In this document: positions 7,799 through 57,401 of the stretch, one piece after another
Layout of the letters: every line of letters begins with the position of its first letter
Numbering within the stretch: the first letter of the stretch is position 1
Assembly (NCBI GenBank): GCA_041946735.1
Contig: JBHGAY010000005.1
Location: 1-64,000 of the forward strand
Direction: 5' to 3'
Length of the DNA: 64,000 nucleotides
Source of the DNA: Candidatus Eiseniibacteriota bacterium
GTDB taxonomy: Bacteria; Eisenbacteria; RBG-16-71-46; CAIMUX01; VGJL01
The notes under the pieces: model-generated
What the model was told of the DNA's origin: nothing
Databases searched by the model: none
The model's input: the letters and a program-made list of their open reading frames with translations, nothing else
Position numbers and translations under genes: made by a program

Positions 7799-7891
7799 CC
7801 CGTGCGCTTTTGCCCCCCTCGCGTGTTTCCCACCCGACACCACGGGACCGCAAGCGACGACGACCCATGGCAGGAGGATCCGGAGGGAACC

Positions 7892-26959: not shown

Positions 26960-27346
26960 TGCAGGCTCCCGGGTATCAAACACGGCACTCTTCGGCCCGG
27001 GCGGCCCTTGCAGGATGCGAAGATTCGAAGCGCGGGACCGCCCGATCGGGAACGACCCAACCCCTTGCTGGAAATATCCGAGCCCGGATACCGCGCCAAT
27101 AAGGATAGCCGGACCGCGGTGCGGTTGCAATGCGGGATCTCCTTCGCAAGCCGGAGGGAGAGCACCGGAAGCCGCCAAGACCGCCTCGATGTCGGATCGT
27201 CCATGAAGAAGGCGATCGCGAACGGACGTCGGGGATCCCTAGGTGCCGCCACCATGGACAGCACGACGTCGGGTCCCGCTTCCTATACTGGAGGAGACGC
27301 AGAGGGCGAGGGGCCAATGGACCACCACGGCAAGAGGAGGAACAGA

Positions 27347-33186: not shown

Positions 33187-35040
33187 TCAGCGCTCGAGGA
33201 CGAGGAGCCTCGTGAAGGCGCTTCTGCCCTCTTCCGACGTGAATCGGAGGAGATAGATCCCGTTTGCCAGACGCCGCGACGGAAGGATCGCCTCCCCCGC
33301 TCCCGAATCGCGGCCGCTGTCCGCGATACGCGCCGATCCGACAAGCCGGCCGGCGGGATCGAGGATGTCCACCTTTCCGCCGTTTCCCGGAAGCCCGCTC
33401 AGCCGCAGAGGTCCGCCGAGGTACGGGTTCGGCGAGACGCGGATCGAGAACGCGGCGGGAGAGGAGAGGTCCGCCTCGCCGACCGCCGCCGGATCGAGCA
33501 CGCCGCAGAAGCAACCGTGGTTCTCGATATCGCGGCGGATCTTCGGCCAGTCCATCCTCGCCTCGGGATCGACCGAGCTGCCGTCGACCTCGAACACGTA
33601 GACCCGGCCGTGGCCGTTCATGTCGGATCCGGCGGTCGTCACGTCCCAATCGCCATCGCTGTCGAAGTCGGCGATGTGGGTGCTGCAATGCGAGTTCAGG
33701 TCGCTCGGATTGTACAGGTTCTTCGGGAACCCGGTCAGGACCGTGCCGTCGAGGTTCATCGCGGTGAGCCACTGCTGCGACGACGCCCAGTAGGTGAAGA
33801 AGATCTCCTGGGTCCCGTCGTCGTCGACGTCCCCGACCGAGACCGAAGAGATCGGCTGGGCCGCCGCGGTCGTCCGCGGGTAGCCGGGAAGCTCGTTGCC
33901 GTCGGGATGCAGGATGTGGAGCTTGCCGTCCCCGGTGAGCGTGATGATCTCGAGCGTCCCGTCGCCCTCGAGGTCGGCGACCGCGGGCCCCGAGCGAGAG
34001 GACTGCCCTTCGACGGCGATGTTCCGCGGCCATCCCGTCATCACCGTCCCGTCGTGGTGCCAGACCCACAACTGATGCCCCTGCGACCCCGGATCCCCCT
34101 CCTGGGCGATGATCTCGAGGTCTCCATCGCCGTCGAGATCCGCGAGCGCCGGCGAGGAATAGACCGGCCGGATCACCTTCGGCCAGCCGGGCATCGAGGT
34201 GCCGTTGGCCCGGATCAGGTGCACGCCCCAGTTCGGGTAGCAGACGTTGCCGACGGCGACCTCGAGATCGCCGTCCTCGTCCACGTCCCCGATCGCCGGC
34301 GCAGACCATTGCGGGTTGTTGATCGGGACGGGCCAGGTGTAGGGCCACCCGGCGACCGCCGAGCCGTCCGGGTTGTAGAAGAAGACCCCGTTTTCCCCGG
34401 CGACGGCGACCTCGATCTCCGGATCCCCGTCGATGTTCGCGAGGACCGGGCAGGTGAGATTGGCGAGCTGCGTGTAGGGGATGTCCACCGGCCAGCCGGG
34501 CAGGGTATTGCCGAAGAAGTCGAAGAGCCAGAGCTTCGGCACCGGAAGGTTCGAGGTGATCGCGATCTCGGCCTCTCCGTCTCCGTCCAGGTCGCCGACC
34601 GCCGCGTGCTGCTGCGTCCCGTTGATCTGGACCGGCCATCCGGGAAGGAGAGCGCCCGAGGCGTCCCATACGTAGATGTAGCGGTCATCGGCGGCGACAA
34701 TCTCGGAGCTGCCGTCCCCGTCGAAGTCGTAGAAGACGGGAGTGGCGACGATCTCGCGCGTCGCCTGCGGCCAGCTACGCGGGCCGTCGAGAGCGTCGCG
34801 TAGGCCGTCGACGGCCTCGCGCGGGCCTTGACAAGCGACGCGGGCACGATCGAGATCGCCGGCGGCGCCGGGTTCTCCCGTGGCAGGCTGCCACCCAGCG
34901 GGATCAATCGCCAGACGGAGTCCGCCGGACGACGCGCTCTCGCCATCGAGCCGCCATGGTTCCGCATGGGAGGCGCTCGCGACGGGAGCCTGCAAGGCGA
35001 CGAGGGTCAGGACCGAGAGAAGAGCGAAAGCGAAGCGCAT
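33187..35040 (-). CDS. Secreted VCBS/FG-GAP-like repeat protein with C-terminal T9SS-like tail
   Basis: Signal peptide; repeated DxDGDGxxEI and LPGWP units; tail VSPNPY...ILDPAGRLV...NGIYLLRF. Confidence 0.85.
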   Translation of the reverse strand: MRFAFALLSVLTLVALQAPVASASHAEPWRLDGESASSGGLRLAIDPAGWQPATGEPGAAGDLDRARVACQGPREAVDGLRDALDGPRSWPQATREIVATPVFYDFDGDGSSEIVAADDRYIYVWDASGALLPGWPVQINGTQQHAAVGDLDGDGEAEIAITSNLPVPKLWLFDFFGNTLPGWPVDIPYTQLANLTCPVLANIDGDPEIEVAVAGENGVFFYNPDGSAVAGWPYTWPVPINNPQWSAPAIGDVDEDGDLEVAVGNVCYPNWGVHLIRANGTSMPGWPKVIRPVYSSPALADLDGDGDLEIIAQEGDPGSQGHQLWVWHHDGTVMTGWPRNIAVEGQSSRSGPAVADLEGDGTLEIITLTGDGKLHILHPDGNELPGYPRTTAAAQPISSVSVGDVDDDGTQEIFFTYWASSQQWLTAMNLDGTVLTGFPKNLYNPSDLNSHCSTHIADFDSDGDWDVTTAGSDMNGHGRVYVFEVDGSSVDPEARMDWPKIRRDIENHGCFCGVLDPAAVGEADLSSPAAFSIRVSPNPYLGGPLRLSGLPGNGGKVDILDPAGRLVGSARIADSGRDSGAGEAILPSRRLANGIYLLRFTSEEGRSAFTRLLVLER

Positions 35041-38558: not shown

Positions 38559-39428
38559 ATGCCGATGCAGCCGATTTCCGTCCCGCAGGCCGAGGCGCAA
38601 GGCGCCTCGCGCCGTGGCACCCGATCCCGCCGCCTCCTGAAGGAGATTCTGGTCGTCGTCGCGTGCCTCATCGCGGTCACCTCGGCGATCGAGCTGGCCG
38701 GCTGGGACCTCGCGCTGTCCCGGGCGTTCTACGATCCCGCCGCGAACCCGGCCTGGTGGGGACGCGAACGCCAGCCGCTCCAGTTCCTCTACGACTACGG
38801 CACGTGGCCGGCGCTTGCCGTCGGGATCGGCTCGCTCTTTCTCCTTCCCGCGACATGGTTCGTGCGGCGCTTGCGTCCCCACCGGAGGAGCTTCGCGCTC
38901 TTAGCCCTCGTCCTCGCTCTCGGTCCCGGACTGGTCGTCAACACCGCGCTCAAGGATCACTGGGGACGGCCGCGTCCGCGCGAGCTGCGCGAGTTCGGCG
39001 GCACTGCCGCATACCAGGGGGTCGAGGATCCTGGCACTCCCGGTAAGGGGAAGGCGTTCCCGAGCGGACATGCGTCCATGGGGTTCTACTTCGTGAGCTT
39101 CTACATTCTGTGGCGCGACGACGCCGCACGACGCGACCGCGCGGCGGGGCGGCGCGCGAGCGCGAGAGCGACGGCGGCTGCGACGGCGAGAGCGCAGGTC
39201 AAGGCGCGGGCGAGCGCGAGGGCGAGAGCGGCTTTGGCCTTCGGGATCCTGGCGGGCTGCGCCATCGGCCTACAGCGGATCGCCTCCGGCGGGCACTTCC
39301 TCACCGACGTGCTGTGGGCCGGCGGGATCGTCTATCTCGTGGCGCTGCTCGTGGACTTCGCGCTGCCCGCTACTCCGGAGCTCCGGCGTCGACCCAATCC
39401 CGGAACAGCGCTCGCTCGTCCTCGGTGA
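38559..39428 (+). CDS. PAP2 family membrane phosphatase (lipid A phosphatase-like)
   Basis: KDHWGRPRP, FPSGHAS, QRIASGGHFLTDV; start uncertain. Confidence 0.85.
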   Translation: MPMQPISVPQAEAQGASRRGTRSRRLLKEILVVVACLIAVTSAIELAGWDLALSRAFYDPAANPAWWGRERQPLQFLYDYGTWPALAVGIGSLFLLPATWFVRRLRPHRRSFALLALVLALGPGLVVNTALKDHWGRPRPRELREFGGTAAYQGVEDPGTPGKGKAFPSGHASMGFYFVSFYILWRDDAARRDRAAGRRASARATAAATARAQVKARASARARAALAFGILAGCAIGLQRIASGGHFLTDVLWAGGIVYLVALLVDFALPATPELRRRPNPGTALARPR

Positions 39429-39783
39429 GTCCTCCGCCGGGCGGCATCGCCCGCTGCTCCCAAACCTTCAGGCGGATCGCCGACCGGCGCGCATAGGCGC
39501 GGGCGTAGGTGTCGAGCGGCACCTGGGGATACATGATCCCGCCCGGTTGATGGCAGCTGCAGCTGCGCTCCATTACAGGGTGGACCTGCTCGGTGAAGGT
39601 CACGTCCCCGCCGTTGGGGTCCGGTTCCCCGTCGCCGGGCGGGGCGGTCAGCTTCTTCCCGCCATCCGCGCCGCACCCGGCAAGGCAGAGGACGAGTGCC
39701 GCGGCCGCGGTAGCGGCGATCGCCGCTGCCGAAGCCATCCGGCCGCGTGGACGCCGGCAACGCTCTCCTCCTGGCTGTCGCAT
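39370..39783 (-). CDS. Lipoprotein cytochrome c-like protein with contracted CSCH heme motif
   Basis: Lipobox LAGC; VTFTEQVHPVMERSCSCH...AMPP...LFRDWVDAGAPE resembles small monoheme domains; alternative start 39738. Confidence 0.7.
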   Translation of the reverse strand: MRQPGGERCRRPRGRMASAAAIAATAAAALVLCLAGCGADGGKKLTAPPGDGEPDPNGGDVTFTEQVHPVMERSCSCHQPGGIMYPQVPLDTYARAYARRSAIRLKVWEQRAMPPGGGLTEDERALFRDWVDAGAPE

Positions 39784-39828
39784 GCGCTGTCCCTTCCCTC
39801 GCACGCCTCTCTCTCGCGCTCCGCGCCG

Positions 39829-41019
39829 TCAGAACGACAGATAGAGCATTGCGATGAGATCGAAGACGTCGTGGTTCTCTCCGTAGCGCCGTCGCCCCTC
39901 GTCGTCGAAGCCGTAGATGCGCGTTCCCCGCGCGTAGGCTTCGAGACGCAGGAGCGGCAAGAGGTCCGATTCGATGCCGGCCGAGACGCGGTCGCGTCCC
40001 GTCTCGGCGAGGTCGAGATCGGGATCGAAGCGGTCGTATTTCGCGGTGAGGCTGATCGACGGGCGGATCTCATACCATCCCTGCACGAAGCCCGCCTCTC
40101 CGTCCACCGACGAGCCGTGGTCCGGATCGTTGGTCAGACGGTCGTACTCCGCGAGCAGGACCACCGGGCCCCGGTGAAGCTGTCCGAAGGCGCCGTAGCG
40201 GTACGTCCTGCCCCTCTCGCCGGTGTTCAGGCGGCCCGTATCGAAGAAGCCGGAGGCGCCGAAGCCGATCCAGTCGCGGAACCAGGCAGCGCGCCCGGTC
40301 ACCGCCTTCTGGTCGTTGTCATCGAACCCGGGCAGGCCGAGTCGCCCGTTCGTCAGCGCGAGATCGACTTGCACGTTCCGCGGAGTGAAGGTGACGGCCG
40401 CGCCCGTGTCGTACGCATTCGGGCCGAACCCCAGGGAGTCGCGCGTGAAGGTGCTGTGGTCTTCGACCTCGAGACCGAACGCCGGCTTGAACCGTCCCAC
40501 CTTGAGGCTGGCGGACAGCGGCAGCGAGCGGATCAGGCCGTAGGTCTCCGCGACCGCGCCCTGGTCGTTCGAGTAGACGAGGGTGAGACGGTCGTTGAGG
40601 TCGGCCGCCACATGGACCGTCGCCTCCATCAGGAAGAAGGAGGACCGGTCGGACGGCAACTGGTCTTCGGATTGCAGGTAGACCGAGCGCACGTCGGCGC
40701 CGAACCGCAGGCCGTCCGCGATGCGAGGATCGAGGACAGGCTCGCGTTCCTCCGCGGGCGTAATCGTGTGGCCGTTCCATGCGTAGAGGAAGCCCGTTTG
40801 TGCGCGAACCCCGCCGCCCGCCGGGTCGACGTGACAGCGGCCGCACGCCATTCCGGTCCGCGTCGCGTAGAGCGGCCGCGCCGAGGCGCGAGAGGCTCCG
40901 AGGAGCGCGAGCGCGGAGACGATGATGGCGAGCGCGATCGGGATCGGGATCGCGAGCGGAATCGCGAGCGGAATCTCCCGGGGGCCTCGCGAAGACTTCA
41001 CGGCTTCTCTCGCTCTCAC
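39829..41019 (-). CDS. Cytochrome c-porin fusion (Cyc2-like outer-membrane protein)
   Basis: Signal peptide, then RPLYATRTGMACGRCH, then beta-strand-rich body (LKVGRFKPAFG, LLAEYD, TAKYDRFDP) ending YLSF. Confidence 0.7.
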   Translation of the reverse strand: MRAREAVKSSRGPREIPLAIPLAIPIPIALAIIVSALALLGASRASARPLYATRTGMACGRCHVDPAGGGVRAQTGFLYAWNGHTITPAEEREPVLDPRIADGLRFGADVRSVYLQSEDQLPSDRSSFFLMEATVHVAADLNDRLTLVYSNDQGAVAETYGLIRSLPLSASLKVGRFKPAFGLEVEDHSTFTRDSLGFGPNAYDTGAAVTFTPRNVQVDLALTNGRLGLPGFDDNDQKAVTGRAAWFRDWIGFGASGFFDTGRLNTGERGRTYRYGAFGQLHRGPVVLLAEYDRLTNDPDHGSSVDGEAGFVQGWYEIRPSISLTAKYDRFDPDLDLAETGRDRVSAGIESDLLPLLRLEAYARGTRIYGFDDEGRRRYGENHDVFDLIAMLYLSF

Positions 41020-41423
41020 TTGCGGAAGACGGCGTGGCAGCCGGCGCAGGAGCTGACCGTCTCGCCGAGGAGCCGCCCGGCGCTCTCGCCGTTCTTCGCC
41101 GAGGCCGCGACGGCGAGCCGGCCGGCGCGGGCGCCGAGCGAATCGGCGTGGGCCTGGAAGTCCGCGATCTGATCGGTGCGCGTCGGCGGCGTCAGCGTGC
41201 GGACCATCTTCGCTTGCGCCGCGATCGACCTCGCGCTCGCCTCGGCCTTCGCCCAGTCGCTCGCGACGATCGATCCCATCGTGACGCGCAGGTCGCGGTT
41301 CAAGCCCTCCATCGCCTTCTCGAACGCGCTCTTGTTGTACGCCCCCTGGCCGGAAACGGCGCCGGCGGCGAGCACGACGGCGACCGCCACGGCGGCCGCG
41401 AGTAGGAAACGGAACTTCTTCAT
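41016..41423 (-). CDS. Periplasmic class II cytochrome c (c'/c556-like four-helix bundle)
   Basis: Signal peptide, helical body, C-terminal SCAGCHAVFRK. Confidence 0.85.
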   Translation of the reverse strand: MKKFRFLLAAAVAVAVVLAAGAVSGQGAYNKSAFEKAMEGLNRDLRVTMGSIVASDWAKAEASARSIAAQAKMVRTLTPPTRTDQIADFQAHADSLGARAGRLAVAASAKNGESAGRLLGETVSSCAGCHAVFRK

Positions 41424-41881
41424 CGCAGCACGACCTCTCCTTCCTCGTCCTTGAACCTATAGACGGCGATCAGGACCAGGAGGCACGAGAAGAGAATCCC
41501 GCTCACGAAACCTCCGCCCGCCGCAAAGGTGAGGAAGCGGAAGGTGGGGGAGACGTAGATGACGGCCCACCACGAGAGGACGTCGAGGATGCCCACGATC
41601 ACGGTCACGCCAAGGATCGTCCCGAACGCCTTGCCTCGTGCCGCGCCGAGGCGGCGGCCGAGGGTGTAGAGGACGAACCCCATCGTCGAGTAGCCGAAGA
41701 GGTGCACGTGCGTGATCACGAGCAGCCTGCCGATGTTGATGAAGGAGAAGTACTCCCCCACGCTCGGGTTGGCGATGCGCGTCTGGTAGAAGACCAGCGA
41801 GGTGCCTGCGACGGCGGCGAGACCGATCCCGAACAGGATCGGTATCGCCAGGAATCTCTCTCTCTGCGCGTTCCCTTGCAT
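41420..41881 (-). CDS. Four-TM inner-membrane protein with THVHLFG motif
   Basis: Four hydrophobic segments; HxH motif; its stop overlaps the cytochrome c' start (ATGA). Confidence 0.75.
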   Translation of the reverse strand: MQGNAQRERFLAIPILFGIGLAAVAGTSLVFYQTRIANPSVGEYFSFINIGRLLVITHVHLFGYSTMGFVLYTLGRRLGAARGKAFGTILGVTVIVGILDVLSWWAVIYVSPTFRFLTFAAGGGFVSGILFSCLLVLIAVYRFKDEEGEVVLR

Positions 41882-42023
41882 GCTTCCCCGCTCTCTCCTC
41901 GTGCTCCGCATGTCAGTCCTGAAAATCGCCACGATCCCCTCTTCGCCGGCCTGACGTCAACAGGATCGGTCGCCGCGGGTGTGGCTCTGATACGATCCAT
42001 CGTGCCTTTCCGGGGAGGGCGCA

Positions 42024-43118
42024 ATGCGGATCGCGATCATCAGTTCGTGGCCCAGGGACCCCGTGCGCGGGAGCGGGACCGGCCGCTACCTCATCGATCT
42101 GGAGGCGGCTCTCCGGCGCGCGGGCGCAACGGTCCTTGCCATCGGCGCCGATCTCGACCTGTCCGACTACGCCTCGTTCGTCGCCCGTCGAATGGAATGG
42201 AACGCCGCGCTTCCCGGCGACACGCGTGCGTGTTCGGCGGACATCCTTTTGGCGATCGACTTCGACGGCTTCGCCCTTCCGTCCGGCCGGGACGGGTTTC
42301 CTCCCAAAGTCGTCTCCCCGCAGGGACTGTTCGCGGAGATCGCTCCGACCGAGCCCGAGCCGTTCCGGTCTCTCCTTCTCGAGCAGGCGCGAGCCGAGAG
42401 GCGCAACGTGGCGGACGCCGCGCTCCTGATCGTCCCGAGCGCCTACGCGGCGGAGGCGGTGCAGCGCCACTACGAAGCGGGTGCGGAGCGGATCGAGATC
42501 ATCCCACACGGCTTCGATCTCGCGGAATGGCAGGAGCTGCTCCAGGGCGCTGATGCCCGTGCGCGGGACAAAGGCCCCACGATCCTCTCGGTCGCGCGCC
42601 TCTATCCGCGCAAGGGGATCGACACGCTTCTTCGCGCTTTCGCGGGCCTGCCGGCGCGGCATGCGGCGGCGCGGCTCCGAATCGTTGGAGACGGGATCGA
42701 GGCGCCACGGCTTCGCCGCCTCGCTGTCGATCTCGGACTCGAGGCGGGCGATCGCGTGCGCTTCGAGGGGGAGATCCCGACGCGGGCCGGTCTCGCCCAC
42801 CTGTTCCGCCAGGCCGATCTGTTCTGCCTGCCGTCGCTGCAGGAGAGCTTCGGGTTCGTGTTCCTCGAGGCGATGGCCGCGGGACTTCCCGTGGTGGCGG
42901 CCAGAGCCGGCGCTGCCGGGGAGGTGCTCGGCGAGGCGGGAACGCTGGTCGCGCCCGGTTCGGCCGAGGACCTGACGAGGGCGCTCGCGCGCCTGCTCGA
43001 CGACTCGGCGGAACGCACCCGGCTGGGCGAGCAGGGACGGCGGCGCGCGTCGCGCTTTCATTGGGAGGCCGCGGCGGCCGCCTACCTCGCCCGATTCGAG
43101 AGAGTCCTCGGCTCGTGA
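42024..43118 (+). CDS. Glycosyltransferase family 4 (GT-B)
   Basis: IVPSAYA, IIPHGFD, VARLYPRKG, PSLQESFGFVFLEAMAAGLPVV. Confidence 0.92.
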   Translation: MRIAIISSWPRDPVRGSGTGRYLIDLEAALRRAGATVLAIGADLDLSDYASFVARRMEWNAALPGDTRACSADILLAIDFDGFALPSGRDGFPPKVVSPQGLFAEIAPTEPEPFRSLLLEQARAERRNVADAALLIVPSAYAAEAVQRHYEAGAERIEIIPHGFDLAEWQELLQGADARARDKGPTILSVARLYPRKGIDTLLRAFAGLPARHAAARLRIVGDGIEAPRLRRLAVDLGLEAGDRVRFEGEIPTRAGLAHLFRQADLFCLPSLQESFGFVFLEAMAAGLPVVAARAGAAGEVLGEAGTLVAPGSAEDLTRALARLLDDSAERTRLGEQGRRRASRFHWEAAAAAYLARFERVLGS

Positions 43119-43143
43119 GGCGCACGCTCGATCGAGATCCCGC

Positions 43144-43188
43144 TTGACGATCCTCCCGCACTTTCCGTATTTTCCAAGAAATGCGCAA
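43144..43188 (+). promoter_or_regulatory. Putative promoter (TTGACG-N18-TATTTT) overlapped by an imperfect 12-2-12 inverted repeat, candidate ArsR operator
   Basis: TTCCGTATTTTC-CA-AGAAATGCGCAA at 43163-43188 (8/12 symmetric), AT-rich in a GC-rich genome, upstream of an ArsR-containing operon. Confidence 0.55.
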
Positions 43189-43210
43189 CACCAAGCGCTG
43201 GAGAGGCGAG

Positions 43211-43435
43211 ATGCTGACGTTCCTTCTGTTCCTCGTGGGGTACTTCGTCCTCACCTGGCTGGTCCTACCCCGTCTCGGAGTGCCGACCTGAGGCTCGCCT
43301 CTGGCCGGCCGCTCCGGTGGAGCGGCATGCAGCACCGAGAAGACCAGCCCCAAGGAGACGGCGGACCGGCCTGCGCTGCAGGTGCCGCCGGCCTCGAGCG
43401 CCGGCGACGCTGGGACGGCCGAAGGCCGGCGCTGA
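43211..43435 (+). CDS. Candidate small single-TM selenoprotein MLTFLLFLVGYFVLTWLVLPRLGVPT-U-GSPLAGRSGGAAC... (74 aa; 26 aa if UGA terminates)
   Basis: RBS GGAGAGG; TGA 43289-43291 followed by a GGU-loop hairpin; frame stays open to TGA 43433-35, 13 nt before the arsR start. Not in the ORF track. Confidence 0.65.
43308..43326 (+). promoter_or_regulatory. Candidate bacterial SECIS hairpin
   Basis: GCCGCTCC-GGT-GGAGCGGC perfect 8-bp stem; loop begins 25 nt after UGA. Confidence 0.6.
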
Positions 43436-43448
43436 AGGTCCAGCGGGG

Positions 43449-43793
43449 ATGAAGGCGGCGAAGGACTTCGCGGAGGCCGCCCGCCTGCTGAAGCTGCTCG
43501 GGCATCCGGCGCGGCTCAAGGTCGTGTGCGGGCTCCTCGGAGAGCCCGCGAGCCTATCGCGCATCTCGCGCGAGATCGGCGTGCCCGTCTCGACGCTGGC
43601 GCAGCATCTCTCGGTGCTGCGACGGGAGGGGATCCTGGAGGAGGAGAGGCGCGGGGTGGAGATCTTCTTCCGCGTGGCGGACCAGCGTGTGCCGGGGATT
43701 CTTCTGGCCCTCTGCGCTGCCGGTCCGTCCGGGCGGGGGCGCAGCCCAGGCGCTTCGCTCCCACGATGGAAGTGGCGCGAGCTGCACGGGTAG
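43449..43793 (+). CDS. ArsR/SmtB family regulator, two-Cys BigR/SqrR/YgaV-like
   Basis: LKLLGHPARLKVVC (helix 2 Cys), STLAQHLSVLR HTH, RRGVEIFFRV wing, ILLALC (helix 5 Cys). Confidence 0.85.
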   Translation: MKAAKDFAEAARLLKLLGHPARLKVVCGLLGEPASLSRISREIGVPVSTLAQHLSVLRREGILEEERRGVEIFFRVADQRVPGILLALCAAGPSGRGRSPGASLPRWKWRELHG

Positions 43794-43872
43794 GGAGCGA
43801 GGAAGGTCCTCCCGAGCGCGTGACGCCATCGCGCTCTTGGCCGCCAACTGCAAACATGAGGAGTCCGAGTCG

Positions 43873-44088
43873 ATGCCGTGGTACGAGTATGTCTGCCCGA
43901 GCTGCGGCGAGCGCTTCGATCTGATGCGCTCGATCGCCGATCGCGACAAGTCCGCTGCCTGTCCTGCCTGTGGAACGGAAGCGAAGCGGGCGCTGCCCCA
44001 CGTCCAGGCGGTCATCGCCGGGGGCGGAGCCGGCGCGCCGCCCAGCTGCGGAGCGAGTGGCGGTGGCTGAGGAGTGCCGCGCAGGTAG
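43873..44088 (+). CDS. FmdB family zinc-ribbon protein, possibly with near-terminal Sec (SCGASGGG-U-GVPRR); ends 44070 if UGA terminates
   Basis: MPWYEYVCPSCG...CPACG; Gly-rich tail with Cys; TGA 44068-70 followed by a hairpin; next in-frame stop TAG 44086-88. Confidence 0.8.
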
Positions 44089-44094
44089 CGGCGT
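44074..44094 (+). promoter_or_regulatory. Weak candidate SECIS hairpin after the FmdB UGA
   Basis: GCCGC-GCAGGTA-GCGGC stem-loop with GGU in the loop, extendable by two G-U pairs; spacing from UGA is short (GGU starts 14 nt downstream). Confidence 0.35.
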
Positions 44095-44182
44095 GACCGC
44101 TACGAAAGAAACCTGAAAGACGACGAAGGACCACCAGGCCGCCGGTCGGCGAAGGGCACCGAGGCCGCCGATCCACGCTCCG

Positions 44183-45307
44183 TCATGGCTCCACCTCGAT
44201 GAAACCCAACGGGAGGACGTGAGAGGCGACACGATCCTCTTCCCCCAGGTCCTCGAAGCTGGTCGGCCAAGGCACCCGCACTTCCGCCTGGACCAGGTAC
44301 TTCCCGGGCGTGCGGGGGATACGGCTCGCGAGGATCACACGCTCCGTGGCGAGCGCGCCGAGCGTCAGCAACGTATCGCGCGCCGCCTCTCCCTGTCCGT
44401 CGGCCTCGAGGAACCGGAGCAGCCACTGCACGTCCGACGACCGGTCGGTCGGATTGCGGATCGACCCCTCGAGAGTCACGCGCGTGTTGTTCTTCCAGCG
44501 CGGCGCCCCGTCGAGCGCGCCGGTCGTCACCGCCACGTTGCCGTGGATCTTCGGGCGGTTGACCATGTACGGGGTCGTGCGCTTCCAGACCACCGTCTCC
44601 TGTTGCGGCGGATCGGGCATCTCGAAGGAGCCGTTCGAGACGAGGATCGGGGAGCGGTTCACGCTCGGCCCGAAGAGCACGCCGAGATAGCCTCCCGGCT
44701 CGATTCCATGGACGAGAATCTCCTTCTCGCTCGATCGCGAGGTGTCCGCGCGCGTGCCCCACTCGTTCGGGTACGGCTTGCCGGTCGACGTGTTCAGCTC
44801 GAGACGCTGGATCTCCCAGGAGCTCCCTTCCGGTCCTTCGCATCGAAAGAGGACCGGCGCCCCGTCGGGGATCTGCAGGCCGTAGGTGCGCTGGTTGTTC
44901 CCTTCGTCCCGCTCCTCGATCTTGCCCTCCGGGTCGGCGATGACGTCGAGCGCATAGGAGCCGGGAGGGAGCGGCGGGATCGGTAGCATCAGCAGCCTCT
45001 CCCGGGAGCGCCGAGGAGGCGTGACGATCGTGTCGCGCTCGGCGATCGTCTCGGTCGCGCTGCGGATTCGCCAGGCGATGGGTGCCGAAGAGGGATCGCC
45101 GTCGACGAATAGGGTCAGCGCGACCCTTGACGCCGTGTCCCGATCGAACGCCCCGCCTGCCGGGTCATACCCCTTCGACAGCGAGAAATCGGGGAGATTG
45201 CCTCCAGCGGCAAGGGCGAGTGCGGTGGCGCCGGCAGCGGCGGCCAGACCAGCCAGGACCCCAGGGACGATCCCGGACCGCAACCATCTTTTCGATCCAT
45301 GCGTCAT
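44183..45307 (-). CDS. Secreted protein with CARDB-like Ig domain
   Basis: Signal peptide; PGSYALDVIADPEGKIEERDEGNN CARDB signature; further beta-rich domains. Confidence 0.75.
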   Translation of the reverse strand: MTHGSKRWLRSGIVPGVLAGLAAAAGATALALAAGGNLPDFSLSKGYDPAGGAFDRDTASRVALTLFVDGDPSSAPIAWRIRSATETIAERDTIVTPPRRSRERLLMLPIPPLPPGSYALDVIADPEGKIEERDEGNNQRTYGLQIPDGAPVLFRCEGPEGSSWEIQRLELNTSTGKPYPNEWGTRADTSRSSEKEILVHGIEPGGYLGVLFGPSVNRSPILVSNGSFEMPDPPQQETVVWKRTTPYMVNRPKIHGNVAVTTGALDGAPRWKNNTRVTLEGSIRNPTDRSSDVQWLLRFLEADGQGEAARDTLLTLGALATERVILASRIPRTPGKYLVQAEVRVPWPTSFEDLGEEDRVASHVLPLGFIEVEP

Positions 45308-45701
45308 GCTGCTGCATCTCCTCTCTTGGTCGACGCCCTCCGGCTCCCGGGCTGGGGGGACGCCGATCTAACACGAGGCGCGCCCAGGCGTTCCCACGGC
45401 GGCGAGCCGGTCGCCGCGGGTGGCGTCCGCGGGCCGGCGAACTGCGCGCGAGAACGGTCGCGTGCGGAGGATCCCGCAGCCGCGCCGCTGGAGCAAGGGC
45501 GGAGGTGCGAGGACGCAGGGGCCCGCGCCGGAGAAGCAACGACGCGCCGGCGACCCCTTCCGGTTTGACTGCCGCTGCCGGTATCCTGCTCGAGGCTTGT
45601 TGGGTCGGGCTGGCGTCGCGCCGCGCCGTGTCGTGAGCCGACCCCGGCCGCCTCGATGGCGGGCCGGGCCTGGGCGGGACGAGGACGGGGAGGAGGATGG
45701 G

Positions 45702-48005
45702 ATGGAAGCGTCGCGCAGGGAGCGGATCGAGTCGATTCTTCGCCGGGCAGCGGAGGCGGGACGGAGGCAACTCCTCGAGGGAGAGGTCTACGAGATCCTC
45801 CGCGAGGCGGGCATCGACACACCACGTTTCGCGGTCGTCTCGGTCGAGGCGGGGGAGGCGGAGCGGGCGGCGGCCGCCTCGGCGCTGCTCGGCTCGCCGG
45901 CGCCCGCGGGCGTCGTCGTCAAGATCCAGAGCCCCGACATCCTGCACAAGACAGAGACCGGCGGGATCGCCTTCGCGCCGCCCGAGGCCTCGGCGATCGA
46001 TCGCGCCTGCTCCGACGTCCTCGAGCGCGTACGCGCGCGGGCCCCGCAGGCGAAGCTCGACGGGCTGCTCCTCTGTGAGAAGATCGGCTACCAGCCCAAC
46101 CTTCCCGGGACGGAGATGCTGCTCTCGCTCCGCCAGGACCCTGCTCTCGGCCCGGTCGTCGTCCTGGGACTTGGGGGCCTGCTCACCGAGTGGTACGGCA
46201 AGCTCGCTCCTTCGCGCACTACCTGGATCGTCTCCGCTCACGACCCGCTCCTCGACCGGGCGGAGCCTCCCGACTTCGCCTCCCTGGGCCCCGCGTTCGC
46301 GCTCCTCTTCCGCGCCTCGCGGCTGCACGACCGGCCTCCCGTCGACGGGACGCTCTTCTGGGGAGCCATGCGCCGTTGGGCGGACCTTGCGCGCACCTTC
46401 GGAATCGACGGGAACGTGAGCCCCTTCGTCCTCGAGGAAGTCGAGGTGAATCCCCTTGCCGCTCTTCCGGGACGGCCACCCGTCGCGCTCGACGGCATCG
46501 CGCGCTGGGGGACCGAGAAGCCGCGGGTTCGGCGCCGCCGGATCGAGAAGATCGCGAACCTCCTCGCTCCCCGCTCCGTCGCCGTGATCGGCGCTTCGGC
46601 GCGCGCGATGAACGCCGGGCGGATCATCCTCCAGAATCTCCGGACGGCTGAGGGGGTCGCCTACGGCAAGATTTGGGGAGTCCATCCGAAGGAGAAGGAG
46701 ATCGACACGATCCCCTGCGTCCCGAACGTGGCAGCCCTTCCCGAGCGGGTCGACCTCGCGGTCGTCTGCGTGCCGGCCGAAGGGGCGCGCGACGCGATCG
46801 TCGACATCGTCGCGCACGAAAAGGCGCATGCGATCATCCTGATCCCCGGCGGATTCGCGGAGACCGGGCAGAAGCAGAGGGCCGAGGAGATCGTCGAGGC
46901 TCTCGAACGGGGGCGTGAGCTCGAGGACGGGGGGCCGATCCTCGTCGGAGGCAACTGCCTCGGAATCGTCTCGAAGAGGCAGTACAACACCTTCTTCCTG
47001 CCTCAGTACAAGCTGCCGTTCCATGCTGCGCCGGGAGACAACCTCGCCGCGATCAGCCAAAGCGGCGCGTACCTCGTGACGCTGACGAGCAACTTGGACG
47101 GCCTCATCTTCCCGAAGGCGTCGATCTCCTACGGCAACCAGATGGACGTCACCGTCTCGGACCTCCTCGAGCACTATCTCGGAGACCCGGGTGTGCAGGT
47201 GCTCGCCTGCTATCTCGAGGGGTTCCAGCCGCTGGACGGCCTGCGGTTCGTCGACCTCGTTCGCAAGCACCGCGAGGCGGGGCGCACGGTGATCGCGTTC
47301 AAGGCGGGAAAGACCGCGCTCGGCGCCAAAGCGGCCGCGAGCCATACCGCCTCTCTCGCGGGCGACTACGAAGTCACGCGCTCGCTGCTCTCCCAGGCGG
47401 GGGCGGTCGTGGCGGAGACGCTGAATCAGTTCGAGGACTTCACCAAGGCGTTCACCATGCTCTACGACCGGACGCCGGCCGGACGCCGCCTCGGACTGAT
47501 CTCGAATGCCGGCTTCGAGTGCTCGACGGCGATGGACGCCCTGTATGCCCTCGATCTCGCTTCGTTCTCGGAGGAGACGCGCGCCAAGCTTGCCGCGTGC
47601 CTCCCCGACATCGCGCATGCGAACAATCCGGTCGATGCGACCCCGATGGCGACGACCAAGCAGTTCGTCCAGGCGGTGGAGGCGATCCTCGAAGATCCGG
47701 GGGTGGACGCGCTCGTCGTCTCCGCGGTTCCGGTGACCCCTGCGCTGAACGATCTGCCTCCCGATCCGGCCGGGACGCACGGCGAGAACATCTATTCGCT
47801 CAGCTCGCTGCCGCAGGAGCTGATCCGCGTCTTCCGCGCGACCTCGAAGCCGGTCGTCGTCGCGGTCGACTCGGGCCGGATCTACGACGACTGCGTCGTG
47901 CTGATGCAGCGCGCCGGGATCCCCGTCTATCGCAAGATCGACCGGGCTACCCGGGCCCTCTCCTGCTACTGTGCGGGGCGGCCGCGATCGCCGTCCGCGA
48001 GCTGA
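45702..48005 (+). CDS. ADP-forming acetate/acyl-CoA ligase family, ATP-grasp domain first (beta-alpha fusion)
   Basis: VVKIQSPDILHKTETGGI and EVEVNPL (ATP-grasp), then PRSVAVIGAS, GGNCLG, ISQSG, YLEG, ASHTASLAG (phospho-His), NNPVD. Confidence 0.88.
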   Translation: MEASRRERIESILRRAAEAGRRQLLEGEVYEILREAGIDTPRFAVVSVEAGEAERAAAASALLGSPAPAGVVVKIQSPDILHKTETGGIAFAPPEASAIDRACSDVLERVRARAPQAKLDGLLLCEKIGYQPNLPGTEMLLSLRQDPALGPVVVLGLGGLLTEWYGKLAPSRTTWIVSAHDPLLDRAEPPDFASLGPAFALLFRASRLHDRPPVDGTLFWGAMRRWADLARTFGIDGNVSPFVLEEVEVNPLAALPGRPPVALDGIARWGTEKPRVRRRRIEKIANLLAPRSVAVIGASARAMNAGRIILQNLRTAEGVAYGKIWGVHPKEKEIDTIPCVPNVAALPERVDLAVVCVPAEGARDAIVDIVAHEKAHAIILIPGGFAETGQKQRAEEIVEALERGRELEDGGPILVGGNCLGIVSKRQYNTFFLPQYKLPFHAAPGDNLAAISQSGAYLVTLTSNLDGLIFPKASISYGNQMDVTVSDLLEHYLGDPGVQVLACYLEGFQPLDGLRFVDLVRKHREAGRTVIAFKAGKTALGAKAAASHTASLAGDYEVTRSLLSQAGAVVAETLNQFEDFTKAFTMLYDRTPAGRRLGLISNAGFECSTAMDALYALDLASFSEETRAKLAACLPDIAHANNPVDATPMATTKQFVQAVEAILEDPGVDALVVSAVPVTPALNDLPPDPAGTHGENIYSLSSLPQELIRVFRATSKPVVVAVDSGRIYDDCVVLMQRAGIPVYRKIDRATRALSCYCAGRPRSPSAS

Positions 48006-48124: not shown

Positions 48125-50461
48125 GTGCGCTCGGTTCTTACTCTCTGGATCCTTCTCGCCGCCGCCATTGGGGCGGCGATCAGCCCGGTAGGCGCTAACG
48201 CGAGCGCGGGCACTGTCGCTAACGCGAGCGCGAGCATTGTCGCCGGCGCCTCGCGCGGGACCCGTGCACCCTCGCCGCTTCCGGATCCTGCGGAGCGGAA
48301 GGCGATCCTACGGCAGGAGGCGGAACGCAGAGCCGCCTGGCTACGGTTGGCCGCGCGCGCCGAGATCGACGAGGGGGAGGCGGAAGGAGAGCGGGCGCGA
48401 AAGCGGGCGCAGGATTCCTACGATGTCCTCTACTACCGTCTGGCGATCGACCTGCGCGACATCTCCTCGCAGTGGATCCTCGGCGACTTGACCGCGCGCC
48501 TGCGACCGGTGGGCGAGACGCGCTCGATCCTCCTCGACTTCGATGACGACATGGTCGTCGACTCCGTCTGGGTCGATGGCCAGCCCGCCGGCTGGAATCT
48601 CGAGCAGAACCGGCTGCAGGTGCAGCTCGACTTCGCGCCGACCGAGCCGTTCGAAGTCCGCGTAGCCTATCAGGGCCATCCGGTGGCGCCCGGAATCAAC
48701 GCCTTCGGCTACTCGGTCCACGGTCCCGACCGAAGCCCGCTCATCTGGACCCTTTCGGAGCCCGAAGGCGCCCGGACCTGGTGGCCGTGCAAGGACACGC
48801 CGGCCGACAAGGCGGACAGTCTCGACGTTCTCCTCCGCGTGCCTGCCGGAATGGTCGCGACGTCCAACGGACTCCTCGACGAGACGATCGACCACGGCGA
48901 CGGATCGTTCACCTATCACTGGAAGCACCGCTACCCGATCGCGACCTATCTCGTCTGCGTCACCGCGACGAACTACGAGACGATCGAGGATCGCTACGTG
49001 CCGGTCTCGGGCGACACGCTGCCGGTCGTCCATTACGTCTATCCGGAGCATCTCGAGGAGGCGCGGGAGGACTTTTCGATCACCCCCGAGGCGATCGAAG
49101 TTTTCCAGGAGAGGTTCGGCCCCTATCCGTTCGCCAGGGAGAAGTACGGGCACTCGATCTTTCCCTGGGGCGGCGGGATGGAGCATCAGACGAACACGAG
49201 CTATGGAAGCTCGTTGATCACCGGCAGCCACCTGTACGATTGGGTGCTCGTGCACGAGCTCGCCCACCAGTGGTGGGGGGACATGACGAGCCCCGCCGAC
49301 TGGCGGGACATCTGGCTGAACGAGGGATTCGCCTCCTACGGCGAGGCGATCTGGTTCGAGCACAGGAACGGGCGCGAAGGGTACCTTTCGTGCCTGCAGA
49401 ACTTGGAGCGGGTCGTCGATCCGAGCGGCCCGCTCTACGATCCCCCCGCGCTGTTCGACGACAACACCGTGTACAACAAGGGCGCCTGGGTCCTCCACAT
49501 GCTGCGGGGAGTGCTCGGCGACTCGCTCTTCTTCGCCTCGTTGCACGAATACCGGGATCGGACCGCATACCGGTCGACCACGACCGCCGAGTTCCAGTCG
49601 ATCGTCGAGGAGGTGGCCGGACAGGATCTCGACTGGTTCTTCCAGCCATGGGTCTATGGGGTCGACCGCCCGCAGTACGTGACCTCGTTCGAGACGATCG
49701 GCGACGAGGCGACGGGACGGGCGGTATCGGTCCGCATCGTGCAGACACAGAAGACCGGAACGTTCGCCATGCCGATCACGCTTCGCTTCCGGCTGTCGGA
49801 CGGCGACTCGCTCGATGCGCGCGTCTTTCAGGATCCGCAGCACGAGGAGTTCCAGATCCCGCTTCCGGAGCCGACCGACACCGTGCGGGAGCTGGTGCTC
49901 GATCCCGACTCCTGGATCCTCAAGAAGGTCCTCTCCTCGCTCAACATCACGATCGCCCAGCTTCCGGTCGGCCAGGCCGGCCTGCCGTATCACGCCCGGA
50001 TCGAGGCGTCGGGGGGAAGGCCTCCCTACGAGTGGGAGGCGACGATGCCGCTTCCCGAAGGTCTCACGCTCGATCCGGCGAACGGGCTTCTTTCGGGCAT
50101 CGCCCCGGATGCGGGCAGCTACGCGATCGAAATCCAGGTGAGCGACGCGCTCGGGGCGAGCGTGCGGCGCGGCTTCACGTGGCGCGTGATCGAGGCGCCG
50201 CAGCTTCTCGCGCTTCCGAATCCGGCCGGGAAGTCGACCGCCATCGCGGTGGCGGGATTCTTCGGCCAGCCGATCCGGCTGCGGATCTACGACACGCTCG
50301 GGCGGATCGTTCGCGATCTCTGGAACGGGACCGCGCCCGCCGAGCCGATCGTCTGGGACGGGCGGGACGATCAGGGGCGCGAGGTCGGCTCCGGGCTTTA
50401 CGTCGCTCGGCTAACGGCCGGCTCCCGGGAGGTCCACCGCCGGATCGTCTGGATCCGCTAG
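48125..50461 (+). CDS. Secreted M1 family zinc aminopeptidase with Ig-like and FlgD-Ig/T9SS-like C-terminal domains
   Basis: GGMEH, HELAHQWWGD...WLNEGFASY, YNKGAWVLHMLR; ASGGRPPY..LPEGLTLDP Ig domain; tail WDGRDDQG..SGLYVARL; GTG start after AAGGAGG. Confidence 0.92.
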   Translation: MRSVLTLWILLAAAIGAAISPVGANASAGTVANASASIVAGASRGTRAPSPLPDPAERKAILRQEAERRAAWLRLAARAEIDEGEAEGERARKRAQDSYDVLYYRLAIDLRDISSQWILGDLTARLRPVGETRSILLDFDDDMVVDSVWVDGQPAGWNLEQNRLQVQLDFAPTEPFEVRVAYQGHPVAPGINAFGYSVHGPDRSPLIWTLSEPEGARTWWPCKDTPADKADSLDVLLRVPAGMVATSNGLLDETIDHGDGSFTYHWKHRYPIATYLVCVTATNYETIEDRYVPVSGDTLPVVHYVYPEHLEEAREDFSITPEAIEVFQERFGPYPFAREKYGHSIFPWGGGMEHQTNTSYGSSLITGSHLYDWVLVHELAHQWWGDMTSPADWRDIWLNEGFASYGEAIWFEHRNGREGYLSCLQNLERVVDPSGPLYDPPALFDDNTVYNKGAWVLHMLRGVLGDSLFFASLHEYRDRTAYRSTTTAEFQSIVEEVAGQDLDWFFQPWVYGVDRPQYVTSFETIGDEATGRAVSVRIVQTQKTGTFAMPITLRFRLSDGDSLDARVFQDPQHEEFQIPLPEPTDTVRELVLDPDSWILKKVLSSLNITIAQLPVGQAGLPYHARIEASGGRPPYEWEATMPLPEGLTLDPANGLLSGIAPDAGSYAIEIQVSDALGASVRRGFTWRVIEAPQLLALPNPAGKSTAIAVAGFFGQPIRLRIYDTLGRIVRDLWNGTAPAEPIVWDGRDDQGREVGSGLYVARLTAGSREVHRRIVWIR

Positions 50462-55664: not shown

Positions 55665-57398
55665 GTGCCTGCAAAGCCTAAAAAAGCGACCGAGCAGCTG
55701 GATGTCTTCCTCGGGGTCGAGGAAGCGACGCCGAAGCGTCGAAAGACGGCCTCTCCGTCCACGGACGGAGGGAAGACGGCGGGAAAGGCAGCCCCGGCCG
55801 CGGAGACCCCTCTGCCGATCCGTACAGCGGCAGAACTGGCGATGCGGCAGCGGGATATTTCGGTCAGCGAGTTCTTCGCGAAGAACCGCCATCTGCTCGG
55901 GTTCGACAATCCGTCCAAGGCGCTGCTGACGACGGTACGGGAGGCGGTTGACAATTCCCTGGACGCGTGCGAGGAGGCCCGTATCCTGCCCGACCTGCGC
56001 GTGGAGATCCTGCCCGCCGGCGAGGACAGGTACCGGGTGATCGTACAGGACAACGGGCCGGGAATCGTTCGTACGCAGGTGCCGAAGATCTTCGGACAGC
56101 TCCTCTACGGGTCGAAGTTTCACACACTTAAGCAGTCCCGAGGGCAGCAGGGGATCGGGATCTCGGCCGCCGGAATGTACGGGATGCTCACGAGCGGCCG
56201 GCCGATGGCGATCATGACCCGGACCGGCCCCAAGCACCCGGCCCACTATCTCGAGCTTCGGATCGACACCCAGCGAAACCGTCCGGAGATCCTCGTGGAC
56301 CGGGAGGAGTCCTGGGAAGCGCCTCACGGCACGCGCGTGGAGATCACCCTTGCGGGGACGTACAAGCGCGGCCGCCACTCGGTCGACGGCTATCTCCGCC
56401 AGGTGGCGATCGCCAATCCCCATGCCCGGATCGTCTACCTCCCTCCCCAGACCGACGGCCCGGCGGAGCCGGTGACGTTCGAGCGGGTGAGCGGGAAGCT
56501 TCCGGACGAGCCGAAGGAAATCCGTCCGCATCCATACGGGGTCGAGCTTGGGGTGCTGATGCGGATGTTGAAGGGGAGCGACGCGAGGACCGTGCAGTCC
56601 TTCCTGCAAGGGGAGTTCTCGCGTGTCTCGCTACGAGTGGCGAGCGAGATCGCCCACCGCGCCCAGGTCGACGTGCACGCGCGGCCAGGCCGCCTGCCGC
56701 TCGAGGCGGGCGAGCGCCTGCACAAGGCGATGAACGAGGTCAAGCTGCTCGCCCCGCCGACGAACTGCATCGTTCCGATCGGCGAGGAACTGCTGCGGCG
56801 CGCTCTCGAGCAGGAGGTGGAGGCGGAGTTCACGACGGTCGTGAGCCGCCCGCCGACCGTCTATCGAGGCAATCCGTTCCTGATCGAGGCGGGAATCGCC
56901 TGGGGGGCCGACCTGCCGGCCGACGAGCCGATCACGCTCTACCGCTACGCGAACCGTGTGCCGTTGCTCTACCAACGGTCGGCCTGCGCGATGACGAAGG
57001 CCACGATCGCCGTCGATTGGCGGAAGTACCAGATCCAGCAGCCGAAAGGGGCGCTTCCGGTGGGTCCCGCGATCCTGCTCGTCCATATCGCCTCCGCCTG
57101 GGTGCCGTTCACGTCGGAGAGCAAGGAGGCGATCGCGCACTATCCGGAGATTCTGAAGGAGATCCGGCTCGCGCTGCAGGAATGCGGGCGACAGGTCGCG
57201 CTCCACATCAACCGGAGGCGCCGGGAGCACGAGGAGGGGAAGAAGCGCTCCTACATCCAGCGCTACATCCCCCACATCGGGATCGCCCTGCAACAGATCC
57301 TGGCCCTCGACGAGAAGGCGCGGGAGAAGACCGTTTCGACGCTCACGAACGTTCTCGAGCAGAGCCGGACGAAGGCCGGCGGGGGCGCGGAGGAGTAG
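55665..57398 (+). CDS. top6B: DNA topoisomerase VI subunit B
   Basis: ISVSEFFAKNRHLLGFD; GHKL motifs VREAVDNSLDA, DNGPGI, LLYGSKF, SRGQQGIGIS; RYANRVPLLY; WVPFTSESKEAIA. Confidence 0.95.
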   Translation: MPAKPKKATEQLDVFLGVEEATPKRRKTASPSTDGGKTAGKAAPAAETPLPIRTAAELAMRQRDISVSEFFAKNRHLLGFDNPSKALLTTVREAVDNSLDACEEARILPDLRVEILPAGEDRYRVIVQDNGPGIVRTQVPKIFGQLLYGSKFHTLKQSRGQQGIGISAAGMYGMLTSGRPMAIMTRTGPKHPAHYLELRIDTQRNRPEILVDREESWEAPHGTRVEITLAGTYKRGRHSVDGYLRQVAIANPHARIVYLPPQTDGPAEPVTFERVSGKLPDEPKEIRPHPYGVELGVLMRMLKGSDARTVQSFLQGEFSRVSLRVASEIAHRAQVDVHARPGRLPLEAGERLHKAMNEVKLLAPPTNCIVPIGEELLRRALEQEVEAEFTTVVSRPPTVYRGNPFLIEAGIAWGADLPADEPITLYRYANRVPLLYQRSACAMTKATIAVDWRKYQIQQPKGALPVGPAILLVHIASAWVPFTSESKEAIAHYPEILKEIRLALQECGRQVALHINRRRREHEEGKKRSYIQRYIPHIGIALQQILALDEKAREKTVSTLTNVLEQSRTKAGGGAEE

Positions 57399-57401
57399 GC
57401 A

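Follow-up and report, generated by a model that had tools for sequence, protein, structure and literature searches.

A stretch of DNA of 64,000 nucleotides (nt) from a Candidatus Eiseniibacteriota bacterium (contig JBHGAY010000005.1, positions 1 to 64,000; here called the window) was analyzed, with the focus on three small genes that follow one another on the forward strand. The window has a G+C content of 68%. The first of the three genes codes for a small membrane protein (gene 1), the second for a repressor of the ArsR family and the third for a zinc ribbon of the FmdB family (gene 3). They form one operon behind a single sigma-70-type promoter. An earlier note on this DNA had pointed out three co-oriented small genes, and they are indeed present. 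Both outer genes contain an in-frame UGA, which the earlier note had taken as a candidate codon for selenocysteine (Sec). As far as can be judged from sequence, the operon appears to code for two previously undescribed mini-selenoproteins that flank a two-Cys repressor of the type that senses sulfide or redox state. The coordinates of the features are collected in Table 1.

Gene 1 consists of one hydrophobic helix, followed by the segment GVPT-U-GS...RSGG.AC, in which U marks the UGA, and then by a hydrophilic tail. We analyzed it in an alignment (A2) of five DNAs, namely the window and four orthologous loci, and the TGA was at the same codon in all five genomes. Just upstream of it, Gly-Val-Pro-Thr was kept with changes at third codon positions only. 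Downstream of it, Gly-Ser, Arg-Ser-Gly-Gly, Ala and Cys were kept as well. The columns that varied within these post-TGA blocks (18, 21, 36, 42 and 51) were all third positions with synonymous changes, in codons for Gly, Ser, Arg, Gly and Ala, and the Cys codon 13 residues past the TGA (columns 52-54) was invariant in the five sequences. Past the conserved block, the tail was divergent and hydrophilic. The read-through frame had its G+C peak at codon position 3 (0.85 in the window), and the tail showed such a peak in four of the five genomes. The first stop of this frame was found between 16 nt before and 1 nt after the ArsR ATG, again in four of the five genomes. These four junctions comprised gaps of 13 nt and 7 nt, one TAATG overlap and one ATGA overlap. 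Shuffled sequences placed the first stop near the ArsR ATG in only 5-12% of the cases per genome.

The TGA of gene 1, like that of gene 3, is a stop in genetic code table 11, but in gene 1 the sequence that follows it carries a coding signature, which is made up of the conservation, the Cys, the third-position G+C and the end of the frame. The alternative is that both UGAs are plain stops. Gene 1 would then be a membrane micropeptide of 26-36 amino acids (aa) and gene 3 an FmdB protein of 65 aa. The hairpins described below would be an attenuator or a processing or stability signal before ArsR, and a terminator lacking U residues at the end of the operon. We regard this alternative as unlikely. 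The GC-rich DNA lends it some support, as owing to it all three frames are nearly stop-free after the gene-1 UGA. However, the synonymous third-position variation and the invariant Cys codon past the TGA argue against plain stops, and so does the end of the read-through frame at the ArsR start in four of the five genomes, the TAATG and ATGA overlaps included.

A hairpin that resembles a bacterial selenocysteine insertion sequence (SECIS) lies in the read-through part of gene 1, and its loop begins 24 nt past the TGA. The stem follows the pattern GCCG-N-TCC / GGA-N-CGGC. In the five-genome alignment 39 of the 40 cells of the stem were paired, and RNAalifold predicted the hairpin independently. 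The fifth pair of the stem (columns 36-46) was C-G in one genome, G-U in two, A-U in one and G-C in one. The 5′ base of this covarying pair is the synonymous third base of an Arg codon. Its 3′ partner opens a codon that switches between Ala, Ser and Pro, so that the pair is kept. We also considered whether gene 1 might be a lipoprotein signal peptide whose Sec takes the lipobox position. This was rejected by eye, given a charged Arg and a Pro in the would-be lipobox region.

With 55.8 bits against PF09723 (cut-off 34.4) and 60.8 bits against TIGR02605 (cut-off 31.3), gene 3 is classed as a true member of the FmdB family. Its residues C8, C11, C30 and C33, which form two CxxC knuckles, were invariant in six of six sequences. 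The Gly-rich tail has an invariant P-x-C, and [F/G]-[G/S] directly precedes the UGA. The UGA is residue 66 and lies in the C-terminal tail, beyond the family model, with Cys at all knuckle positions. As in gene 1, the TGA was at the same codon in all five genomes. It was followed by four to five codons, the first for Gly or Ala and the last mostly for Arg, and then by an in-frame TAG. The TAG was in frame in five of five genomes despite a 3-nt difference in spacing, which is a further point against plain stops.

The hairpin of gene 3 spans the TAG, and in the window its loop begins 21 nt past the TGA. Its 16-nt core, TAGCGGGGTTCCCGCT, was identical in the four orthologues, and the window differed from it only in the loop and the top pair. 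The identity of the flanking proteins, 41-68%, is far lower. The loop was GGTT(C) in the four orthologues. Altogether 36 of the 40 cells of the stem were paired, and this hairpin was also predicted by RNAalifold. The plain-stop view is helped by its location, at the 3′ end of the operon and facing a convergent gene, where a U-less terminator might be found. However, the 16-nt identity goes beyond the needs of a terminator stem. We think that a sequence conserved to such an extreme degree, together with a TAG that stays in frame, speaks for an element that is recognized by a protein. Nevertheless, the evidence for the UGA of gene 3 is weaker than that for gene 1, because four to five codons of read-through do not suffice for a coding test and a terminator without U residues is a fair alternative. 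A word search with gene 3, in which nine candidates were scored, gave two hits, its own protein and one relative with 58% identity. Both were cut at the same place.

Across the five genomes, the two hairpins lie 18-24 nt past the TGA and have G residues in their apical loops (GGN in gene 1; GTT or CGTGA in gene 3). No T run follows either of them, which also disfavors plain stops, and neither was scored as a terminator in a terminator scan. The earlier note had described a UGA followed by a GGU hairpin in both genes. A TGA followed by a hairpin was found in both, and the loop of gene 1 in the window is GGT, but the loop of gene 3 in the window is CGTGA. The possibility that the hairpins are dispersed repeats was rejected, as each occurs in a single copy in the window. 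Rfam gave one match in the region 42900-44400, and this was at chance level (E = 1.2; 19.8 bits, with a gathering score of 99). Among the window open reading frames (ORFs) of at least 150 aa, 22 of 35 ended with TGA and 13 of 35 with TAG. TGA is therefore a normal stop in this DNA, and a reassigned genetic code was rejected. That TGA is the commonest stop would also fit plain stops at the two sites. However, the two UGA sites in five genomes were TGA in 10 of 10 cases and never TAG, for which the expectation is about 1% at a TGA usage of 63%. Ten out of ten is unexpected for freely drifting stops. The TGA, the hairpin and the coding signature past the TGA were kept in five of five genomes, so that the two Sec candidates of the earlier note have gained strong comparative support. 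We consider Sec decoding of both small genes probable.

Several observations weigh against Sec decoding. In one orthologous locus (L004, 3905-4331), the read-through frame of gene 1 continues into ArsR with no stop in between, and the tail, which is short there, shows no third-position G+C signal. A frameshift or an assembly error might account for this, or the fusion may be real. The covariation in the gene-1 hairpin comes from a single pair in an alignment of five sequences, and its score was reached by 94 of 500 shuffles; the gene-3 hairpin showed no covariation in five sequences. The gene-1 loop was GGT in only two of the five genomes (GGG in two and GGC in one), and the gene-3 loop of the window differs from that of the orthologues and contains no GGT. 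The single-sequence fold energies were ordinary, no better than those of shuffles for gene 1 (z = -0.02) or gene 3 (z = -0.10). No homologue of gene 1 was detected. A word-index search yielded two candidates, neither of which scored, and a full HMMER search of 1.84 billion representatives gave no hit at E<=0.001. Read through the TGA, gene 1 matched no Pfam or NCBIfam family. No Cys homologue aligned to either UGA was found in the homologue searches. The window contained no tRNA genes at all, and the Pfam scan of 36 of its ORFs revealed no sel gene; these searches covered the window only. That neither Sec machinery nor Cys homologues were found in the searches would fit plain stops, as would the ordinary hairpin energies and the fact that gene callers cut both proteins at the TGA.

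The window was also scanned for further ORFs that are interrupted by a TGA and show a coding signal before as well as after it. Nine candidates were obtained. By their coordinates, seven of them lay inside ORFs of the opposite strand (one of these in the doubtful ORF 48341-49993), one was two adjacent genes in the same frame, and one was weak. The scan thus gave no other convincing TGA-interrupted gene, which again does not favor Sec use. In the literature searched, no report linked Eisenbacteria with selenocysteine, and none combined a selenoprotein, ArsR and SECIS.

The comparison among genomes started from 30 aligned members of the ArsR subfamily. The alignment was then used for a genome scan, which yielded 40 loci. 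An earlier genome scan with the single ArsR protein had given 522 pattern matches and no relatives. The pattern used with the alignment, HP[LVI]RLKIVC, does not fit the HPARLKVVC of the window itself, so similar variants may have escaped. ArsR identity to the window was 61-66% in four loci (L001-L004) and at most 45% in the other 36. The titles of three of the close loci name Candidatus Eisenbacteria, and that of the fourth reads "uncultured bacterium". The nearest database protein to the ArsR is 96% identical and has the source name Candidatus Eisenbacteria. The order gene 1-ArsR-gene 3, with the TGA at the same codon in both small genes, was found in all four close loci. The 36 distant loci contained neither of the small genes.

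About 10 kb around the operon (39370-48005 in the window) was syntenic in L001, L002 and L004, the close loci that have flanks, with proteins at the identities given above. The earlier note had proposed conservation of the gene neighborhood as a check. The synteny was kept in the relatives, but it lends less support than hoped for, because the entire neighborhood is syntenic and not the three genes alone. For a functional link between the genes, their order taken by itself is therefore a weak argument. The evidence specific to the three genes is their common promoter and their tight junctions. The distance between the ArsR stop and the ATG of gene 3 was 10-12 nt in all four orthologues, and in these a purine-rich stretch that resembles a Shine-Dalgarno sequence includes the ArsR stop or lies next to it. 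The corresponding distance in the window was 79 nt (43791-43872), about 70 nt more than in the orthologues.

We also noticed that six ArsR entries in the database (P0010, P0011, P0018, P0027, P0032 and P0034) have 20-60 extra residues at the N-terminus. The entry P0010 matches the ArsR of L001, and its extra residues come from the gene-1 tail translated in a wrong frame. The other five seem to be of the same kind, with annotation filling the 'empty' stretch after the TGA.

Table 1. Positions of the operon, its elements and its neighbors in the window
Feature	Position	Strand	Remarks
Sigma-70-type promoter	43144-43173	+	-35 TTGACG 43144-43149, 18-nt spacer, -10 TATTTT 43168-43173
12-2-12 inverted repeat of the earlier note	43163-43188		8/12 complementary in the window
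Gene 1, candidate membrane selenoprotein	43181-43435	+	ATG 43181, second Met 43211; candidate Sec TGA 43289-43291, final TGA 43433-43435
SECIS-like hairpin of gene 1	43308-43326	+	8-bp stem GCCGCTCC/GGAGCGGC, loop GGT
ArsR/SmtB-family repressor	43449-43793	+	114 aa; Cys27 in helix 2, Cys89 in helix 5, C-terminal LPRWxWxEL tail
Gene 3, FmdB-family zinc ribbon	43873-44088	+	candidate Sec TGA 44068-44070, then GVPRR and TAG 44086-44088
SECIS-like hairpin of gene 3	44085-44103	+	stem GTAGCGG/CCGCTAC, loop CGTGA, spans the TAG stop
144-aa ORF	39370-39804		syntenic neighborhood
396-aa protein with CxxCH motif	39829-41019		syntenic neighborhood
Cytochrome c'-like protein	41016-41423		syntenic neighborhood
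170-aa membrane protein	41420-41932		syntenic neighborhood
GT4 glycosyltransferase	42024-43118	+	5′ flank of the three genes; syntenic neighborhood
CARDB-like gene	44183-45307	-	3′ flank of the three genes, convergent; syntenic neighborhood
Acyl-CoA synthetase-like protein	45420-48005		syntenic neighborhood

The single promoter-like element of the earlier note was recovered as TTGACG-18-TATTTT. It was the sole promoter-like site in 42900-44400, where shuffled sequences gave an expectation of 0.0. The pattern TTGAC[G/T]-N17/18-TA[T/A]TTT was present in all five genomes. An ATG was located exactly 7 nt past the -10 element in every genome, in frame with gene 1 in each (-10 to ATG at 43168-43183 in the window, 3760-3776 in L001, 3778-3794 in L002, 51-67 in L003 and 3780-3796 in L004). 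This layout suggests that the transcript is leaderless in this lineage. A second Met of gene 1 was also kept in five of five genomes, just before the hydrophobic helix and with a GGAG-type stretch upstream. The distances from the first ATG to this Met were 21, 30, 33, 36 and 45 nt. Either of the two starts may be used, or both.

The earlier note had also placed an ArsR operator, a 12-2-12 inverted repeat, over the promoter. This claim was not supported. In the four orthologues, no more than 5-6 of 12 positions were complementary at the corresponding site, and the level of 8/12 seen in the window was reached by 532 of 63,974 windows (0.8%) of the sequence, which is chance level. What is conserved here is the -35 and -10 elements and the ATG. 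At the repeat, the genomes share only a short AT-rich dyad, ATTT-N6-AAAT, which coincides with the -10 element and the ATG. An ArsR site at this dyad is possible, though the sequence gives no indication of one.

The middle gene matched the ArsR family in PF01022, PF12840 and NF033788 (61.7 bits for the last, cut-off 55). In the AlphaFold2 model (mean predicted local distance difference test score 82.9), C27 of the motif LKVVC lies in helix 2 (residues 20-31), and C89 of the motif LALC is the penultimate residue of helix 5 (residues 80-90). An ArsR with Cys residues in these two helices, as the earlier note had described, was thus confirmed by both family models and structure prediction. C27, C89 and the LPRWxWxEL tail were invariant in 30 of 30 subfamily members. 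The best sequence matches in the PDB were BigR (2.9e-13), followed by YgaV, PagR, HlyU and SqrR, and in the HMMER alignments Cys27 was aligned with the helix-2 Cys of BigR, YgaV, HlyU and SqrR. The top fold matches were HlyU, BigR and SqrR, with TM scores of 0.70-0.72, ahead of CzrA, SmtB, CadC and the As(III) ArsRs. By sequence and by its modeled fold, the ArsR is nearest to the thiol-based BigR/YgaV/HlyU/SqrR group, so that the affinity to BigR, SqrR and YgaV proposed earlier was borne out. Two observations make the fit to BigR a weak one. The BigR equivalog model NF040642 gave only 56.6 bits against a cut-off of 155, and both HMMER alignments end at residue 88, right before Cys89, so they do not show the register of Cys89 with BigR. 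The predicted complex of an ArsR dimer with the FmdB protein had a score of 0.00 against a mark of 0.32, a result that has no bearing either way on binding.

The usual targets of BigR-type regulators had been said to be missing here, and the Pfam scan agreed: no rhodanese, persulfide dioxygenase, YeeE/YedE or SQR family was present among the 36 window ORFs. The module might also handle a soft metal or metalloid (Hg, As, Cd or Cu) with its selenoproteins being real. The ArsR would then bind the metal through its two Cys residues, and the membrane peptide and the zinc-ribbon tail would each offer a Sec/Cys pair as a high-affinity ligand, in a minimal relay like MerT/MerP. The repressor does belong to the ArsR/SmtB metalloregulator family, with NF033788 above its cut-off, and a small membrane protein and a small soluble protein, each with a candidate Sec/Cys pair, would suit such a relay. 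However, its nearest relatives are the non-metal thiol sensors BigR, YgaV, HlyU and SqrR, and the metal sensors rank lower. No His/Asp/Glu metal site of helix 5 was among the residues invariant in the 30 subfamily members, and the scan revealed no metal pump, reductase or methyltransferase among the window ORFs. We consider a role in metal handling quite unlikely.

The reading that we favor, with slightly better than even confidence, is a three-gene operon with two UGA-recoded mini-selenoproteins and an ArsR of the BigR/SqrR/HlyU type. For Sec insertion, repressor binding, the signal and the chemistry we infer the following as the most likely scheme. Each UGA would be recoded by the hairpin 18-24 nt downstream, which would act as a bacterial SECIS. 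In gene 1, the UGA right past the membrane helix would be read as Sec (GVPT-U-GS), with the Cys 13 residues on and a tail that is probably disordered as well as hydrophilic. In gene 3, the Gly-rich arm would present its conserved Cys and, 6-9 residues on, the UGA-encoded Sec at 4-5 residues from the end. A dimer of ArsR would sit on the promoter and start region and repress the operon. Oxidation of Cys27 and Cys89, or their bridging by a persulfide or polysulfide (or by selenium), would release it. The two mini-selenoproteins, one anchored in the membrane and the other soluble, would then act through their Sec/Cys pairs as partners in selenol-thiol redox reactions or as a carrier pair. Reactive sulfur, an oxidant, a selenium species and a soft metal are candidate signals. 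Given that Sec is inserted, we see about an even chance of a role in thiol/selenol redox or reactive-sulfur chemistry. That the unit would sense or buffer sulfur or selenium species, as the earlier note had put forward, is likewise an inference.

The junction between gene 1 and ArsR also allows another explanation, a feedback from selenium supply. Because the frame that depends on Sec ends right at the ArsR start, ArsR translation would be coupled to Sec insertion in gene 1. The repressor level, and through it the output of the operon, would track the availability of selenium. The junctions fit such coupling, with a stop/start overlap in two of the five genomes, a gap of 7-13 nt in two, and an in-frame run into ArsR in one. 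The leaderless-type start, which would make the gene-1 ORF the first to be translated, fits as well. However, a purine-rich Shine-Dalgarno-like stretch lies within about 15 nt of every ArsR start, so that independent initiation is possible, and coupling of this kind is common in ordinary operons. We think that a feedback of this type is highly improbable. A related idea is that gene 1 and the repressor make up a selenium-gated translational switch, in which the synthesis of ArsR, or a possible membrane-tethered seleno-ArsR fusion in the L004 lineage, would report the capacity for Sec insertion. We judge this to be very unlikely. If it were true, the operon would directly sense how much selenium the cell has, by means of two families of selenoproteins not known from elsewhere.

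If the favored reading of two mini-selenoproteins with a thiol-sensor-type repressor is true, two additions would be made to the catalogue of prokaryotic selenoproteins, which is put at 119 families and subfamilies in a section of a 2026 review (PMC13188914). Gene 1 would be a membrane mini-protein without detectable relatives, and gene 3 would represent a new position of Sec in the FmdB family. The use of Sec would be extended to the uncultured Eisenbacteria, for which the literature searched gave no such report. Selenoproteins would also be linked to a two-Cys repressor of the BigR/SqrR type, which would offer a compact and testable system with Sec/Cys pairs next to a thiol sensor. In addition, automated annotation hides genes of this kind: both proteins are cut at the UGA, and several ArsR entries are stretched over the gene-1 tail.

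Some other features of the window may be worth mentioning. Subunits B and A of topoisomerase VI are adjacent at 55665-58565, with Topo-VIb_trans, TP6A_N and Toprim domains. Topoisomerase VI is uncommon in bacteria. Four large or very large proteins are encoded at 7802-11983, 19747-23448, 23612-27178 and 33187-35040. FG-GAP repeats occur in two of them. Three end with a FlgD-Ig-like domain, which is possibly a sorting or secretion tag. The ORF called at 48341-49993 has its G+C peak at codon position 1 (0.88, 0.43 and 0.65 at the three positions), and the true gene there probably uses a different frame or the opposite strand.

Among known systems, BigR, SqrR, HlyU and YgaV share with the ArsR of the window the winged-helix ArsR fold, the helix-2 Cys in register and a second Cys in helix 5. 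SqrR has been solved in disulfide and tetrasulfide states, according to PDB titles. In contrast to this group, the window ArsR scores only 56.6 bits with the BigR equivalog model, a long way short of the cut-off of 155, its second Cys ends a shorter helix 5 in a register that the alignments do not show, and it has its own LPRWxWxEL tail. Its neighbors also differ, being two candidate mini-selenoproteins rather than a persulfide dioxygenase, a rhodanese or YeeE/YedE.

Gene 1 is similar in architecture to the eukaryotic SELENOK and SELENOS, although homologue searches revealed no sequence relationship. These have one membrane helix and then a disordered hydrophilic segment with Sec near the C-terminus. 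In gene 1, the Sec would come right after the helix and depend on a bacterial in-frame SECIS. Sec close to the C-terminus is also found in thioredoxin reductase, which ends with GCUG. Gene 3 resembles the families with C-terminal Sec in its [F/G]-[G/S]-U followed by 4-5 residues and in having an upstream Cys on a Gly-rich arm, and differs from them in its zinc-ribbon context. As its Sec would be 4-5 residues from the end, the SECIS must reach beyond the stop codon. The 2026 review, in the sections available, describes families with Sec by the C-terminus, UXX-star and KCU-star, as well as the selenoprotein operons SAO and Tso (PMC13188914). Gene 3 had no NCBIfam match to such families; the best seleno-named models gave 14.4 and 11.4 bits, below their cut-offs.

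FmdB selenoproteins have been published before. A passage on the Global Ocean Sampling data reports two selenoproteins of the FmdB family with 807 Cys homologues and the motif CxxU (PMC2398784), and Table 1 of the review lists the family under TIGR02605 with the motif UxxU and 2 Sec (PMC13188914). The published forms belong to the same family as gene 3 (TIGR02605, PF09723), are likewise predicted, and have a bacterial SECIS. However, they carry Sec in the CxxU or UxxU zinc knuckle, whereas the UGA of gene 3 is in the C-terminal tail and its knuckle Cys residues are intact. In the available parts of that table, no FmdB form with a tail Sec is listed, and no entry resembles gene 1 (PMC13188914).

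Another system for comparison is the Tso operon ('three selenoprotein operon'), taken here from the review and from model names only. It belongs to a different lineage from that of the window. The window ArsR gave 35.7 bits against the TsoR model NF045707 (cut-off 115), and the models of TsoA, TsoB, TsoC, TsoX and TsoY did not match either small protein. Nevertheless, Tso with its TsoR is a multi-selenoprotein operon with a regulator of the ArsR/SmtB type, as the operon described here would be.

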